A stretch of DNA of 52,471 nt from positions 1 through 52,471 of the forward strand of contig JAAFJI010000001.1 of the NCBI GenBank assembly GCA_013298045.1, read 5' to 3'. The notes under the pieces are model-generated. The model was not told where the DNA came from. It did not search any database and was given only the letters and a program-made list of their open reading frames with translations. Shown piece after piece: positions 39,264-43,194 of the stretch; positions within the stretch are counted from its first letter, which is position 1; the number at the start of each line of letters is the position of its first letter. Origin of the DNA: Betaproteobacteria bacterium. GTDB lineage: Bacteria > Pseudomonadota > Gammaproteobacteria > Burkholderiales > Casimicrobiaceae. A program made the translations under genes and the position numbers.

Positions 39264-41099
39264 ATGGCGTTGAAGCCGGAGCTTCCCGAAGCCTCAGACA
39301 TTGTCGATTTGCTTGACGTCGAAGAGGTGCGCGCGATGATTCGCGCCTCGGAGCATGGCAGCGTCGATCTGGACACCTGGACTCTGCATCGCTCGCAATC
39401 GATGCTACCGGTGCCGCCGCGGGATGCGCTGAGCTTTACTGCCGGCGCGAACGATTTTTCTGCGTCGTTCTGGCACGACGTGGTTGACCGCTCGGCGGCG
39501 ATCACATTGCTGGTGGACGAATCGGGCACCATCATTTTTGAGAGCGCACAGCTTTCTCGGTTTACGGGAATGCCGCGCAACGCTCGGGTCGGTGAAGCGC
39601 TGCTCGCGGTGCTTGGCGTTCCCAATGTGGGCACGATCAACGAGGCAATTGCGCAAATGGCGCAGGGCGCGCTCGCCCGCGCGACGTTTGATTTCACGCT
39701 CGACAATGCCGAAGGCGAGCAGCGCACCTTCATGGCGGTGGCGGTCAACGCGCTGCACGAATCCCACGTCGGCGCCATTGTGCTCACAGCGCACGACATC
39801 AGTGATCGAAAGACGCTAGAGACGAAGCTGCGACACAACGCCAATCATGATTCGTTGACCGGTTTGTCTAATCGCAGATCGGCCTTGCGCCGGTTAAACG
39901 CCTGGATTCGCGACGTCAAACAGTCGCGCGCCACCCCGGCGGTGCTGCTGCTTGATCTCGACGGGTTCAAGAGCGTGAACGACGCTTACGGACACGCGAC
40001 CGGCGACGCGGTGCTGGTAGAGATTGCCGGACGGCTGCGCCAGATTGACCCGGAAAACGTTGGCGTCGCGCGCCTTGGCGGCGACGAGATCATTCTCTAT
40101 GCCCGGTTTGTAAATGCCGAGGTCGATGCGCCGTCGATCGCCAAGCGTGCGCTCGACGAGATACGTCGCCCGGTGCTTGCCGACGGACACTGGATTCATA
40201 TTAGCGCGAGTGTCGGTATCGCCGCCTATCCGCAGAGCGGCCAAAGCGCGGACGAACTCATTCGCGGCGCTGACGTTGCGCTGCATCGCGCCAAAGCGGC
40301 CGGTCGCGGCACGCTGCGCTGGTTCGACCCGGAAGCGGCCGCTCGTCAGCGCGAGGCGGTCACGCTGCGCTCCGAGCTCACCAACGCGCTGCCTAGCAAC
40401 GAGTTTCGCGTTTATTTCCAGCCGATTGTTGCTGTCAACACCGGGCTCGTTCACTCGCACGAAACGCTTCTGCGCTGGCAACACAAAACGCGCGGCTTGC
40501 TTGATGCGTCGCAGTTCATCGAGAGTGTCGAGAGCGCCGGACTCACCGATGCGCTCACCCAGTGGGTGCTGCACGAATCGTTTGCCCAGGCCCGTGCGAG
40601 CCTGGTCATCAGCACCCGTCCGATCGCAATCAATATTTCGCCTCGCTCGCTGCAGCGCGCCGACTTCGCCGAGCGGCTGCTGACTTCGCTGCGCGCTGCG
40701 GCCATTGACCCGACGCAGATTGAAATCGAAATCACCGAAGAGGATTTTGTTCGCGCCGCCGACGAGGTGCCCGCCAACATCACCGCGCTGCACTCGGTCG
40801 GAATGCGCATCATCATCGACGACTTTGGGCGCGGCTTTTCGAATTTCGGCTACCTCGCACGCTTTCCGGTCTATGCGATCAAAATCGATCGCAGCTACGT
40901 CTCGGAAATCGGTCAGAGCGAGCGCACTGAAACGCTCATCGGCGCGCTTGTACGGCTGGCCGACGAACTCGGTATCAAGGCAATCGGGGAAGGCGTAGAG
41001 ACCCACGAGCAGTCGGATTTTCTCGTTCACCACGGTTGCATTTTGCAACAAGGCTTTTTGCATGGACGCCCTAGGCCCGCTTTCATTCCGGGCAGCTAA
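39264..41099 (+). CDS. PAS-GGDEF-EAL c-di-GMP signalling protein
   Basis: PAS ending DIS.RK, then HDSLTGL.NR, DLDGFK.VND, GGDEI, ETLLRW, EITE, DDFG.G.S, KID and EGVE. Confidence 0.92.
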   Translation: MALKPELPEASDIVDLLDVEEVRAMIRASEHGSVDLDTWTLHRSQSMLPVPPRDALSFTAGANDFSASFWHDVVDRSAAITLLVDESGTIIFESAQLSRFTGMPRNARVGEALLAVLGVPNVGTINEAIAQMAQGALARATFDFTLDNAEGEQRTFMAVAVNALHESHVGAIVLTAHDISDRKTLETKLRHNANHDSLTGLSNRRSALRRLNAWIRDVKQSRATPAVLLLDLDGFKSVNDAYGHATGDAVLVEIAGRLRQIDPENVGVARLGGDEIILYARFVNAEVDAPSIAKRALDEIRRPVLADGHWIHISASVGIAAYPQSGQSADELIRGADVALHRAKAAGRGTLRWFDPEAAARQREAVTLRSELTNALPSNEFRVYFQPIVAVNTGLVHSHETLLRWQHKTRGLLDASQFIESVESAGLTDALTQWVLHESFAQARASLVISTRPIAINISPRSLQRADFAERLLTSLRAAAIDPTQIEIEITEEDFVRAADEVPANITALHSVGMRIIIDDFGRGFSNFGYLARFPVYAIKIDRSYVSEIGQSERTETLIGALVRLADELGIKAIGEGVETHEQSDFLVHHGCILQQGFLHGRPRPAFIPGS

Positions 41100-41260
41100 G
41101 TATTTAGTGAATATTTAATTGAATGCCGTGAAACTGCATATTTAATGTGGCAAAAACCGATAAATCTATTAGTTAAAGCGTCAACCCGAGTTTCAATGTG
41201 CCTTCAACATGGAAGCATTCATCAATGCAACTTTTGCGGTTTGAAGGCGTCCATTGCTTT

Positions 41261-41662
41261 ATGAATCGTCGTTACGTCCAGCGTTGGTTTGCCTCAGTCA
41301 TAGCACTGCTTTGGTGTGTGACGAGCGTGCTCGCCCCCGCGTATGCGACACAAACGCTCGCCGCGAGTCTTGGCGACCATCATCACCCAGCGCTGGATAT
41401 GACCACGCTGGACGATGCCAACGAAAATAGCAGTAGTGCGCAAAAAATCATCGTAGTTGATATCGCCACTTTTTGGTCGGTGGTTGACGATTTCGATGGA
41501 CAAAGCGACTGCAAGCTTGCCTGTATGAGCACCGCCGCAGCGCTTCCGACCACTCACCTCGCGCCGCGCTTCGAGTCGTTACAGACCGCGCCGCTCGCGT
41601 TTGAGCAAAACGCCGTTTCGTTCATTCCTGCCGTCGAGCCGCCGCCGCCGCGCGGTCGCTGA
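41261..41662 (+). CDS. Exported CxxxC / C-terminal polyproline protein (CutF/CruR/DUF2946-like metal-responsive leader candidate)
   Basis: Signal peptide ending APAYA, DHHH, CKLAC and C-terminal VEPPPPRGR. First gene before a metal-handling cluster. Confidence 0.65.
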   Translation: MNRRYVQRWFASVIALLWCVTSVLAPAYATQTLAASLGDHHHPALDMTTLDDANENSSSAQKIIVVDIATFWSVVDDFDGQSDCKLACMSTAAALPTTHLAPRFESLQTAPLAFEQNAVSFIPAVEPPPPRGR

Positions 41663-41748
41663 ACTGTGCTTCGGGCGACGCCTGAGGCTCGCGATACTCG
41701 CCCAGTTTCGACTCGGCGAGCTGTTCAACGATTGCAGGAGTTTTTTTT

Positions 41749-42411
41749 GTGGATACCAGAATGCACGCGCTTCGCGTGGGCGCTGTATTGGCGACGCTAA
41801 TCGCCGCGACTACAGCAGAAGCGGGCTTTTTCATTCCCAAGGGCACCACCATGGGGATGATGAGCTTATCTCCGAACGAGCAGAACTTTGAGCTCTCGTA
41901 CGGCTTCGATCGGCGCTTAAGCGGGATGCTCGGTTTGACCCGGGTGCGCGAGGGCGACGCCGCCGCGTGGCGAAACGTCGCGCTTGCGCAAGCGACCTAC
42001 CTCGTGCATCGACAAAGCACAGACGATGGCATTTTCAATGCCTACGTTTGGGCGGGTCCAATCGCCGAGCGTGTCGAGGGTGAAAACAAAACTCGCCTCG
42101 GCGGGCAAGCCGGCGTGTGGCTCGACTTTGAAACGCGGCTCATTTATTCGCGAATTAAGGCGCACACGTTTAAGACCGAGCGCTGGCGGCGCAACGAAGT
42201 GGTCGCGCAGGGCATGCTCGCGCCGTACAAGGCGGAGTACGACCAAATCGCATCATGGGGCGGCGTGCAGCTCAAGCGCGCGAGCGGCGAATCGCTTGAG
42301 GTCACGCCCTACCTGCGATTTTTTCAACGTAACTGGTGGGTCGATGCGGGGGTGAGCGTAGATCGCAAACACCGCAACGACTTCTTTCTGAATGTCATGT
42401 ATTTGTTTTAA
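41749..42411 (+). CDS. Exported hypothetical protein, probable small outer-membrane beta-barrel
   Basis: AGGAG RBS, signal peptide ending AEA, amphipathic aromatic strands and C-terminal ...NVMYLF. Confidence 0.7.
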   Translation: MDTRMHALRVGAVLATLIAATTAEAGFFIPKGTTMGMMSLSPNEQNFELSYGFDRRLSGMLGLTRVREGDAAAWRNVALAQATYLVHRQSTDDGIFNAYVWAGPIAERVEGENKTRLGGQAGVWLDFETRLIYSRIKAHTFKTERWRRNEVVAQGMLAPYKAEYDQIASWGGVQLKRASGESLEVTPYLRFFQRNWWVDAGVSVDRKHRNDFFLNVMYLF

Positions 42412-42424
42412 CTTGGAGAAATGT

Positions 42425-42772
42425 ATGAAATCGATTGCTAAATTTGCACTCACCACTGTGACCTTCACCGCGCTTGCGCTCGGCGTTGCCGCGGTGCATG
42501 CCGAGACGGTAAAGATCAAAGTCGATGGCATGGTCTGCGCGTTCTGCGCCGGATCAATCGAGAAGAAAATGAAGGCGAATAAGGAAACGGCGGAAGTCTT
42601 TGTGAGTCTTGAAAACAAGATCGTCGCGGTCGCTCAGAAGCCTGGCCAGAAGCTCGATGACGCGAAACTCAAAGCGCAGATTGCCGATGCGGGCTACGAA
42701 GTCAAAGGTATCGAGCGGGTGAACGCAACAATCGCCGACATTCGCGCCGAAGTGAAGGCGAAAAAGTCGTAA
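42425..42772 (+). CDS. Periplasmic heavy-metal-associated (HMA; MerP/CopZ-like) protein
   Basis: Signal peptide ending VHA. VDGMVCAFC and I.DAGY motifs. Confidence 0.9.
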   Translation: MKSIAKFALTTVTFTALALGVAAVHAETVKIKVDGMVCAFCAGSIEKKMKANKETAEVFVSLENKIVAVAQKPGQKLDDAKLKAQIADAGYEVKGIERVNATIADIRAEVKAKKS

Positions 42773-43194
42773 TGGCAGTTGTCGCGACTAGCGAAACCTC
42801 GGGCGACGGTGGCAACGCGCAAGCGGTAAGCCGTCGCCTGACCTGGTTTTCCATCTTCACCAGTACCTCGACCTTGGTGTGCTGCGCGATCCCAGCGCTT
42901 CTGGTTGCGCTGGGTGCCGGGGCAACGCTCGCTGCCTTCGTCGGCGCGGTGCCGCAGATCGTGTGGCTCTCGGAGCACAAAACGGCGGTGTTCGCATTTG
43001 CCGGAATCATGCTCGCGATTGCTGGCTATTTCCAGTGGCGCGCACGCTTCGCACCATGCCCGATCGATCCGGTGCTTGCGGCCGCCTGTACACGGCAGCG
43101 CAGGGTATCGAGCGTCATTTATTTCGTGTCGCTCGCGATCTACTTGGCGGGCGGCTTCTTCGCCTTTGTGCTACCGGTGATTTTGTACGGTTGA
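42772..43194 (+). CDS. MerT-like three-helix membrane metal transporter
   Basis: TLVCCAIP in the first helix and a loop PCPIDP...AC. TAATG coupling with the HMA gene. Confidence 0.75.
   Translation: MAVVATSETSGDGGNAQAVSRRLTWFSIFTSTSTLVCCAIPALLVALGAGATLAAFVGAVPQIVWLSEHKTAVFAFAGIMLAIAGYFQWRARFAPCPIDPVLAAACTRQRRVSSVIYFVSLAIYLAGGFFAFVLPVILYG

Follow-up and report, generated by a model that had tools for sequence, protein, structure and literature searches.

The locus at positions 41261-43194 (+ strand) of a 52,471-nucleotide stretch of contig JAAFJI010000001.1 (a Casimicrobiaceae bacterium, assembly GCA_013298045.1; the whole stretch is hereafter the window) raises the question of what four co-oriented open reading frames (ORFs), encoding an exported leader, an outer-membrane barrel, an HMA protein, and a MerT-like membrane protein, would carry across the cell envelope, and by what means they are switched on. 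An earlier note, made from the sequence alone, had taken them for a complete soft-metal import operon, probably for copper, that was controlled by stalling of a nascent peptide rather than by a transcription factor. Our analysis establishes that the four genes are a conserved unit, and indicates that the first probably encodes a cis-acting pause leader and that the metal is probably copper; the complete scheme that we favor, a copper-induced, CutF-type, inward Cu(I) relay whose metal and direction we infer, is in our view possible, at somewhat less than even chances.

The features from which that note had started were all recovered: the four genes with their motifs; the hydrophobic N-terminus, DHHH, CxxxC, and EPPPPRGR of the 133-aa leader; the terminal Phe of the barrel; the GMVCAFC of the HMA protein, which was the sole one of the four to match a Pfam or NCBIfam model at its cut-off (PF00403, 28.5 bits against 24.8); and, in the membrane protein, a CC in helix 1 with two further cysteines in a loop (C37, C38, C96, C106). 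Nor does any merA, merR, P-type ATPase, or oxidase gene adjoin the unit in the window, the flanks being a PAS-GGDEF-EAL gene on one side and a dioxygenase-like gene on the other. The leader and the barrel are separated by 86 nt and the barrel and the HMA gene by 13 nt, while the HMA and MerT-like genes overlap by 1 nt.

The barrel was present in 21 of 301 genomes of the order and, by profile search, in 9 of 401 genomes of the phylum, the window's own genome being included in both counts, and the same kind of search assigned 816 clusters at 50% identity to the family. At 19 of the 20 non-self loci of the order the HMA and MerT-like genes followed directly behind the barrel, the remaining locus stopping at a contig edge. 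An alignment scan with the MerT-like protein gave at least 589 confirmed matches, the best 80 of which, a choice biased toward close relatives, were surveyed as loci: the barrel was there in 76, in the order barrel-HMA-MerT-like, and the HMA gene in 79, and three of the four barrel-less loci were interrupted by contig ends. The named carriers comprise Methylophilus, Methylotenera, Polaromonas, Ramlibacter, Solimonas, Rudaea, and alphaproteobacterial metagenome-assembled genomes. For the leader we applied a crude rule (70-200 aa, a hydrophobic N-terminus, PP in the last 15 residues, and an end at most 520 nt from the barrel), which rule was positive at 66 of the 83 barrel loci with enough upstream DNA, a count that includes the window, keeps near-duplicates, and contains one case (L095) that looks false; among control ORFs of the window's own genome 40 of 2244 (1.8%) were positive. 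The co-conservation that the earlier note had proposed to survey is therefore borne out, and leader, barrel, HMA, and MerT-like genes constitute a conserved four-gene unit. When metagenomes were scanned with the barrel, a single locus came up, and it was unrelated; a barrel homologue matched no plasmid, and of the nine plasmid records that matched the MerT-like protein the three inspected had no cassette in their annotation.

CutF-like proteins, of which 5,334 have been listed, are defined by a length under 150 aa, a signal peptide, PP in the last 15 residues, and a co-oriented downstream gene within 1000 nt (PMC9973294), all of which the window leader displays, its N-terminus being hydrophobic by hydropathy and its PPPP occupying residues 127-130; it also has their Cys motif (CxxxC or a variant) in the form of C84xxxC88. 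In the 120 close homologues listed, out of 145, C88 was invariant and its partner stood six residues upstream in 98%, so that the CxxxC of the window is a variant of the family's usual C-x5-C; the DHHH, for its part, was reduced to H42 alone, in 71%. The two motifs that the earlier note had singled out are accordingly traits of the window leader and not hallmarks of its family. PPPR occurred in 119 of the 120, a count biased by a query profile that itself contained PPPR, and RAPP in none. More constant was the separation of the last PP from the second Cys. It measured 39-42 in 49 of 64 leaders having a Cys pair (mean 40.8, sd 3.5); the 116 close relatives that were scored all gave 40 or 41, and the window leader gave 40. 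The distance from the N-terminus to the Cys varied with an sd of 15.6, a figure inflated by uncertain starts.

By the same measure that spacing is 41 in CutF of the Rhodobacter capsulatus cutFOG operon (C73, P109EPEGPPPRL118; PMC8456105) and 47 in CruR of Bordetella (C93, RAPP at 139-142; PMC9426467). CutF is induced by copper by way of a stem shielding the next Shine-Dalgarno (SD) sequence (PMC9973294; bioRxiv 10.1101/2025.02.05.636593), whereas CruR is repressed by copper through Rho (PMC9426467). The earlier note had likened the leader to both; by its sequence it resembles the copper-induced CutF, and not the copper-repressed CruR. With CutF it shares the position as a small first gene, the signal peptide, the CxxxC, the C-terminal PPPR, and a predicted stem at the ribosome-binding region of the next gene; it differs in the lack of a detectable profile match, in the absence of the two upstream cysteines of the CutF mature domain, in an RpoE-like promoter and a likely leaderless mRNA, and in heading a barrel/HMA/MerT-like cargo instead of a multicopper oxidase. 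With CruR it has in common the exported first ORF, the Cys pair, and the C-terminal PP before a metal-transporter operon, but the CXXC and RAPP 45 residues apart, the Rho-dependent copper shut-off, and the TonB-dependent cargo of CruR are not seen here. The assignment to DUF2946/CruR was thus rejected, the window leader giving no profile match and having CxxxC and PPPPR in place of CXXC and RAPP, as was that to CopL, for want of a match to NF033807. CopL of Xanthomonas and Stenotrophomonas is likewise a cis-acting Cys/Pro leader before copper-resistance genes, albeit heading copAB, and related leaders do match it weakly: among 14 leader-type proteins scanned, three matched CopL below the cut-off (best 29.5 bits against 40), one passed that of DUF2946 (L021, 27.2 bits), and two matched DUF2946 below it. 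In ten Methylophilaceae loci (L018, L029, L062, L063, L069, L080, L081, L084, L093, and L097) the cassette lies beside genes that, by sequence clusters, resemble earP and efp; EF-P controls CutF stalling, and this adjacency, in which the gene names are our own reading, may be plain synteny.

When 62 intergenic regions were folded, a basal helix recurred between the leader's last codons or stop and the SD region of the following gene. In 49 de-duplicated loci the leader end paired with its own ribosome-binding site (RBS) at -13.8 kcal/mol, compared with -10.1 for foreign ones and -10.2 for a leader-internal control; the own pairing surpassed the foreign mean in 42 of the 49 and was in the top tenth in 20, the loci being related, so that the p-value overstates the case. 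In ten aligned loci of one clade, eight pairs were 83.8% paired (slid controls, 35-54%), with compensatory changes in four of the eight and seven cells changed on both sides, as happened in 9 of 500 shuffles. The basal duplex of the window, with the 27 nt upstream of the barrel, amounted to -18.5 kcal/mol, and 1 of 48 foreign regions did as well. No Rfam family was matched.

To this switch is added a putative promoter. The motif (G/T)GAAC(T/C)N-N16/17-TCnnn, located 5-7 nt before the ATG, was found at 35 of 65 leader loci and at 30 of 2500 control ORFs; the pattern was drawn post hoc from those same leader-upstream sequences, and many of its cases can also be read as a sigma-70 TTGAAC/TATCNT. 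A sigma-70 scan found no promoter. The motif agrees with the RpoE consensus GAACTT-16/17-TCCAAA, with CAACTT-16-GTCCA, as in the window, among the listed variants (PMC4336711; cf. the ECF02 promoter table of PMC13492112); against the ECF02 form GAACTT-N16/17-TCnAA the window reads CAACTT-16-TCCAT. RpoE itself scored above cut-off in all five relatives examined, including one of the same genus, and the motif also precedes two of five rpoE genes tested. The position of the motif supports 41261 as the start of the leader and makes a leaderless mRNA beginning at that ATG likely, as far as sequence can tell. In the window's own genome, on contig C46 (L139:124-1716), a BepA-like protease gene has the motif directly before an internal ATG. 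A perfect 8-nt inverted repeat (41200-41207/41241-41248) has its right arm in the spacer of the predicted promoter, and may be an operator or a chance occurrence.

Nor is this the only kind of transcriptional regulator associated with the cargo. A CsoR-like repressor occurs in 8 of the 108 loci surveyed for neighbors (flanks of 1.5-5 kb or less), and at loci with CsoR the leader is dropped or replaced. Six such proteins all scored best with the copper sensor RicR, under its cut-off, and one was best on CsoR structures; in G506 (L125:6273-6997) a CsoR-like gene and a PPPPR leader both precede the cassette, which arrangement indicates that two regulators can be stacked. Two barrel homologues (P0294 and P0314) form one ORF with an N-terminal MerR-family regulator, be it a true fusion or an artefact of start calling. 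Control of the cassette by transcription therefore likely exists beside the leader, and the earlier note's opposition of stalling to a transcription factor was too strong. Regulators of these kinds respond to metal excess, which makes induction of the unit by copper likely.

The case for copper draws on the company that the cassette keeps. In the 108 loci we found CusF in 22, a multicopper oxidase in 13, a cupredoxin in 10, a TolC-like gene in 10, DUF411 in 4, a P1B ATPase in 4, and an ArsR-like gene in 5, and 29 loci had one or more of the five copper types (CusF, oxidase, cupredoxin, DUF411, ATPase). In a relative of the same genus (G188) a second leader, a small protein, a TolC-like gene (named by eye and likeness), an oxidase, a cupredoxin, and a CusF stand between the MerT-like and the dioxygenase genes, which block (L128:8257-13170) is missing from the window, where the dioxygenase gene directly follows the MerT-like one; the second leader, CutF-like as well, ends in FKRPPRA. 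In G304 (L124:673-6360) genes for an ECF sigma/anti-sigma pair, DoxX, and DUF2282-MNIO-DUF2063 lie directly upstream of the complete cassette, and bufferins of that type have been linked to copper stress (PMC12452194). With the CsoR-like repressors, and with merA above cut-off in none of 29 carrier genomes, these neighbors sustain the earlier note's choice of copper as the probable metal. The best match to the MerA model in the window's own genome (contig C2, L112:784-2937) is a VTT-domain-fused flavoprotein devoid of the C-terminal Cys pair, likely mis-annotated as a mercuric reductase; similar long ORFs head the MerA match lists of several carrier genomes.

For the barrel, the structure prediction that the earlier note had called for produced, with AlphaFold2 and 149 sequences, 12 strands at a pLDDT of 96.8. 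The best structural matches, generic barrels of 12 strands, were KdgM by Foldseek and, by VIA-align, BrkA (Z 18.1), KdgM (16.4), and FapF (16.1); PcoB ranked 17th (Z 10.8, rmsd 4.5), a generic likeness. The profile gave nothing meaningful against the sequences of the PDB, and only unnamed clusters in the Atlas. We regard the barrel as an unnamed orphan outer-membrane family, predicted to be a channel. Met10, Met12, and Met192 (mature numbering) occur in 61, 85, and 85% of the 149 sequences against a background of 3.4%, at least two of them in 125 rows; they are placed on the polar (non-hydrophobic) side of the first and last strands, and as these two strands are neighbors in a closed barrel, the three residues would lie close together in the lumen of the model. 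R63, N72, D101, E103, R165, and G176 are invariant. PcoB/CopB, which accompany PcoC and PcoD (PF05275; PDB 7PGE), also have 12 strands, a copper-resistance setting, a periplasmic chaperone, and an inner-membrane protein, but no match to PF05275 was obtained for the window barrel or six homologues, on which ground that identity was rejected; moreover, PcoB has an acidic Cu(II) funnel where the present family has the Met triad plus Arg, Asp, and Glu, with Cys-based partners. The co-occurrence of barrel and CopB, nil among 21 barrel and 24 CopB genomes of the 301 where some 1.7 would be expected, is not informative.

The CxFC of the HMA protein was invariant in 42 sequences, and among the NCBIfam models CopZ scored best (39.9 bits) and MerP lower (22.2 bits), both under cut-off; the profile matches CopZ, Cu-ATPase-domain, and MerP structures alike, and the preference for CopZ does not fix the metal. 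The HMA proteins of two loci (L125 and L126) are extended at the N-terminus by a long His-rich stretch. The MerT-like protein has its four cysteines invariant in 24 sequences, and three long helices predicted at medium confidence (pLDDT 72), which model found no fold match, nor was there a PDB sequence match. Its layout of a CC in helix 1, two loop cysteines, and three predicted spans is that of MerT, whose own Cys positions we presume to be the corresponding ones. By profile, membership in MerT (PF02411, PRK13751) was rejected: 3 of the 24 members matched weakly (best E 0.00048, 20.6 bits against a cut-off of 32.9) and the window protein not at all. An exported HMA protein beside a small CC-helix membrane protein recalls MerP/MerT (TIGR02052, PF02411), yet the scores are far under the cut-offs, the order is here HMA then MerT-like, and an outer-membrane barrel forms part of the unit; with no merA above cut-off in the 29 carriers, and a MerR-like query matching none of the 108 loci, membership in a mer operon was discarded. 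On a Vibrio plasmid (L122:7745-9389) a MerT-like/HMA fusion comes after the gene of a GDCCVxC (seleno)protein, and an HTH gene lies in divergent orientation.

The coordinates of the features are collected in the following table.

Table 1. Genes and predicted control elements of the cassette, in window coordinates.
Feature	Position	Strand	Basis or characteristics
Predicted RpoE (ECF02)-type promoter	41228..41254	+	-35 CAACTT, 16-nt spacer, -10 TCCAT; ends 6 nt before leader ATG
CutF-like leader, 133 aa	41261..41662	+	Sequence: predicted signal peptide, C84xxxC88, C-terminal EPPPPRGR
5' arm of predicted basal helix	41652..41664	+	Leader's last three codons and stop
Two inner intergenic hairpins, 41668-41688 and 41697-41720 (predicted)	41668..41720	+	In centroid and MFE (minimum free energy) structures
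3' arm of predicted basal helix, 41723-41735, abutting barrel Shine-Dalgarno AGGAG, 41736-41740	41723..41740	+	Folding/duplex
Orphan outer-membrane protein, 220 aa	41749..42411	+	GTG start after AGGAG; C-terminal Phe; predicted 12-stranded beta-barrel
Exported HMA (CopZ/MerP-fold) protein, 115 aa	42425..42772	+	GMVC38AFC41; Pfam PF00403 above cut-off
MerT-like inner-membrane protein, 140 aa	42772..43194	+	C37C38 in helix 1; C96, C106 in loop before last helix

As to the surroundings, the PAS-GGDEF-EAL gene (39264-41099) stands between typA/bipA and the leader; in G188 the leader comes directly after typA, so that this gene looks inserted.

In the mechanism that we propose, an RpoE-like sigma factor would produce a leaderless mRNA whose first codon is the ATG of the leader, and the leader would be exported while it is being translated. 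Because some 40 residues separate its Cys pair from the Pro run, the pair would be just past the translocon when the ribosome reaches PPPR. Copper on that pair would lengthen the pause, and the paused ribosome would occupy the basal helix at its 5' arm, thereby freeing the RBS of the barrel, the HMA and MerT-like genes being translated by coupling. Cu(I) would then pass from the Met-lined site of the barrel to the CxxC of the HMA protein, from there to the CC pair in helix 1 of the MerT-like protein, and finally to the loop Cys pair of the latter, which inward flow would draw Cu(I) out of the periplasm toward chaperones, sensors, and ATPases of the cytoplasm, as proposed for PcoB/C/D. Thiol sites bind Cu(I) more tightly than Met sites do; because of this Met-to-Cys order of affinity, and because the unit has no energy source, inward flow would be the most likely direction, which direction is nevertheless the weakest step of the model.

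Several observations weigh against this scheme. Copper-type neighbors are absent from the (often short) flanks of 79 of the 108 loci, and the window's own genome has no copper-type genes near the cassette and yielded no match to CopB, an oxidase, or CusF; the five ArsR-type neighbors, and the two barrel-joined MerR-like regulators, which are closest to ZntR, MerR, and CueR with no clear winner, do not speak for copper either. The leader is missing at 17 of the 83 barrel loci, among them loci where the barrel comes after CusF in a longer copper cluster and alphaproteobacterial loci, several having a CsoR-like gene; the orthologue of the same genus has no Cys pair at the C84/C88 site; and the window leader matched neither the DUF2946 (PF11162) nor the CopL (NF033807) model in the search with profile hidden Markov models that the earlier note had proposed. 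In the window the predicted helix stops just before the SD, which is left uncovered, the fold of the whole intergenic region is no better than shuffles (z 0.75) with the basal helix outside the centroid, and a modelled stall, which raised RBS unpairing by more than 0.05 in 25 of 49 loci, left it unchanged (0.40 to 0.40); no consensus fold emerged from 11 Methylophilaceae intergenic regions. An rpoE gene was not found in the window's own 90%-complete assembly. Finally, to import copper when copper is high would be counter-intuitive.

Alternatively, the same CutF-type switch might govern an outward relay, in which the MerT-like protein or CopA would feed the HMA chaperone and Cu(I) would be unloaded through the barrel. 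Induction-type regulators and resistance neighbors would suit that direction, CusF being often inside the operon, and the Cu-type P1B ATPase that 23 of the 29 carriers possess could fill the periplasm. The same count, together with a CusA in 16 of the 29, led us to reject the cassette as a replacement for either. What disfavors outward flow is once more the lack of an energy source within the unit, and the circumstance that transfer from bis-Cys to Met sites would be uphill. The precedents are divided: for the 12-stranded PcoB of Escherichia coli inward flow has been reported (PMC9210255), while Caulobacter PcoB has been reported as an efflux protein (PMC12509749); MerT, with three spans, and MerP are importers, delivering Hg to MerA (PMC3466566). 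We consider an outward relay unlikely, if less so than the alternatives that follow.

The cargo might instead serve another soft metal (Ag, Hg, Zn, or Cd), or several, sequestered without a reductase. MerT/MerP-type Cys chemistry is not specific for one metal, the MerR-like regulators on the two barrel homologues score ZntR, CueR, and MerR alike, and ArsR-type genes are among the neighbors; yet the absence of merA, the recurrence of CusF, oxidase, and cupredoxin, the preference of the CsoR-like proteins for RicR and CsoR structures, and a Met triad generally suited to Cu(I) or Ag(I) make that reading distinctly improbable. Hardly more credible is a copper-starvation importer with the logic of CruR, whereby the ribosome would pause in the absence of copper and copper would relieve the pause. 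The architecture is indeed that of an uptake chain, CruR-family genes head uptake operons (PMC9426467), and an RBS-masking helix implies activation of the genes by a pause, whatever brings that pause about; the tails, though, are PPPR or xPPI, without a RAPP among the listed relatives, the spacing is 40 and not 47, and the neighbors are resistance genes and CsoR-like repressors rather than TonB, Sco, or PCuAC genes. The earlier note's relay from the outer membrane through the periplasm to the cytoplasm is retained as a conserved unit with copper as the likeliest metal, but is unlikely to be a starvation importer. Least probable of all is that the first gene encodes a small secreted metal-binding protein without a role in cis, the RpoE-like promoter being the sole control, for, despite the missing DUF2946/CopL match, the variable Cys pattern, the promoter motif, and the weak folding support in the window, the leader is always first in the unit, its Pro tail and Cys-to-Pro distance are kept while the remainder diverges to 12-26% identity, its pairing with the next gene's RBS is specific to the cognate, and it is dropped or replaced where CsoR is present.

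Returning to the copper-induced inward relay, the class of CutF-like leaders is already published and widespread, and it is the cargo that is new. We found no paper on a MerT-like/HMA/barrel copper cargo; the supplementary tables of PMC9973294 and PMC9426467 could list the cassette, and HMA and MerT terms are absent from three supplementary files of the former. Rather tentatively, and with less assurance than for the relay itself, we suggest that the unit may represent an energy-free Cu(I) conduit across the whole Gram-negative envelope, composed of a Met-lined 12-stranded channel, a CopZ-like carrier in the periplasm, and a branch of the MerT family specific for copper, and gated at two levels: in transcription by the envelope-stress factor sigma-E, giving a leaderless mRNA, and in translation by a ribosome pause that senses the metal.

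Little is yet known of how copper passes the two membranes, outer and inner, to reach the cytoplasm of bacteria, and the unit offers for such study three small testable proteins, among them members of a barrel family that has at least 816 clusters and no name, and of a MerT-like family that occurs without merA. The cassette constitutes a third type of cargo for CutF-like leaders, whose Cys-to-PP distance, about 40 as against 47, may predict which leaders turn genes on and which turn them off with copper. If the envelope conduit were true, it would supply a route of entry for Cu(I) to the cytoplasm, and would suggest that MerT and MerP were recruited from copper handling.

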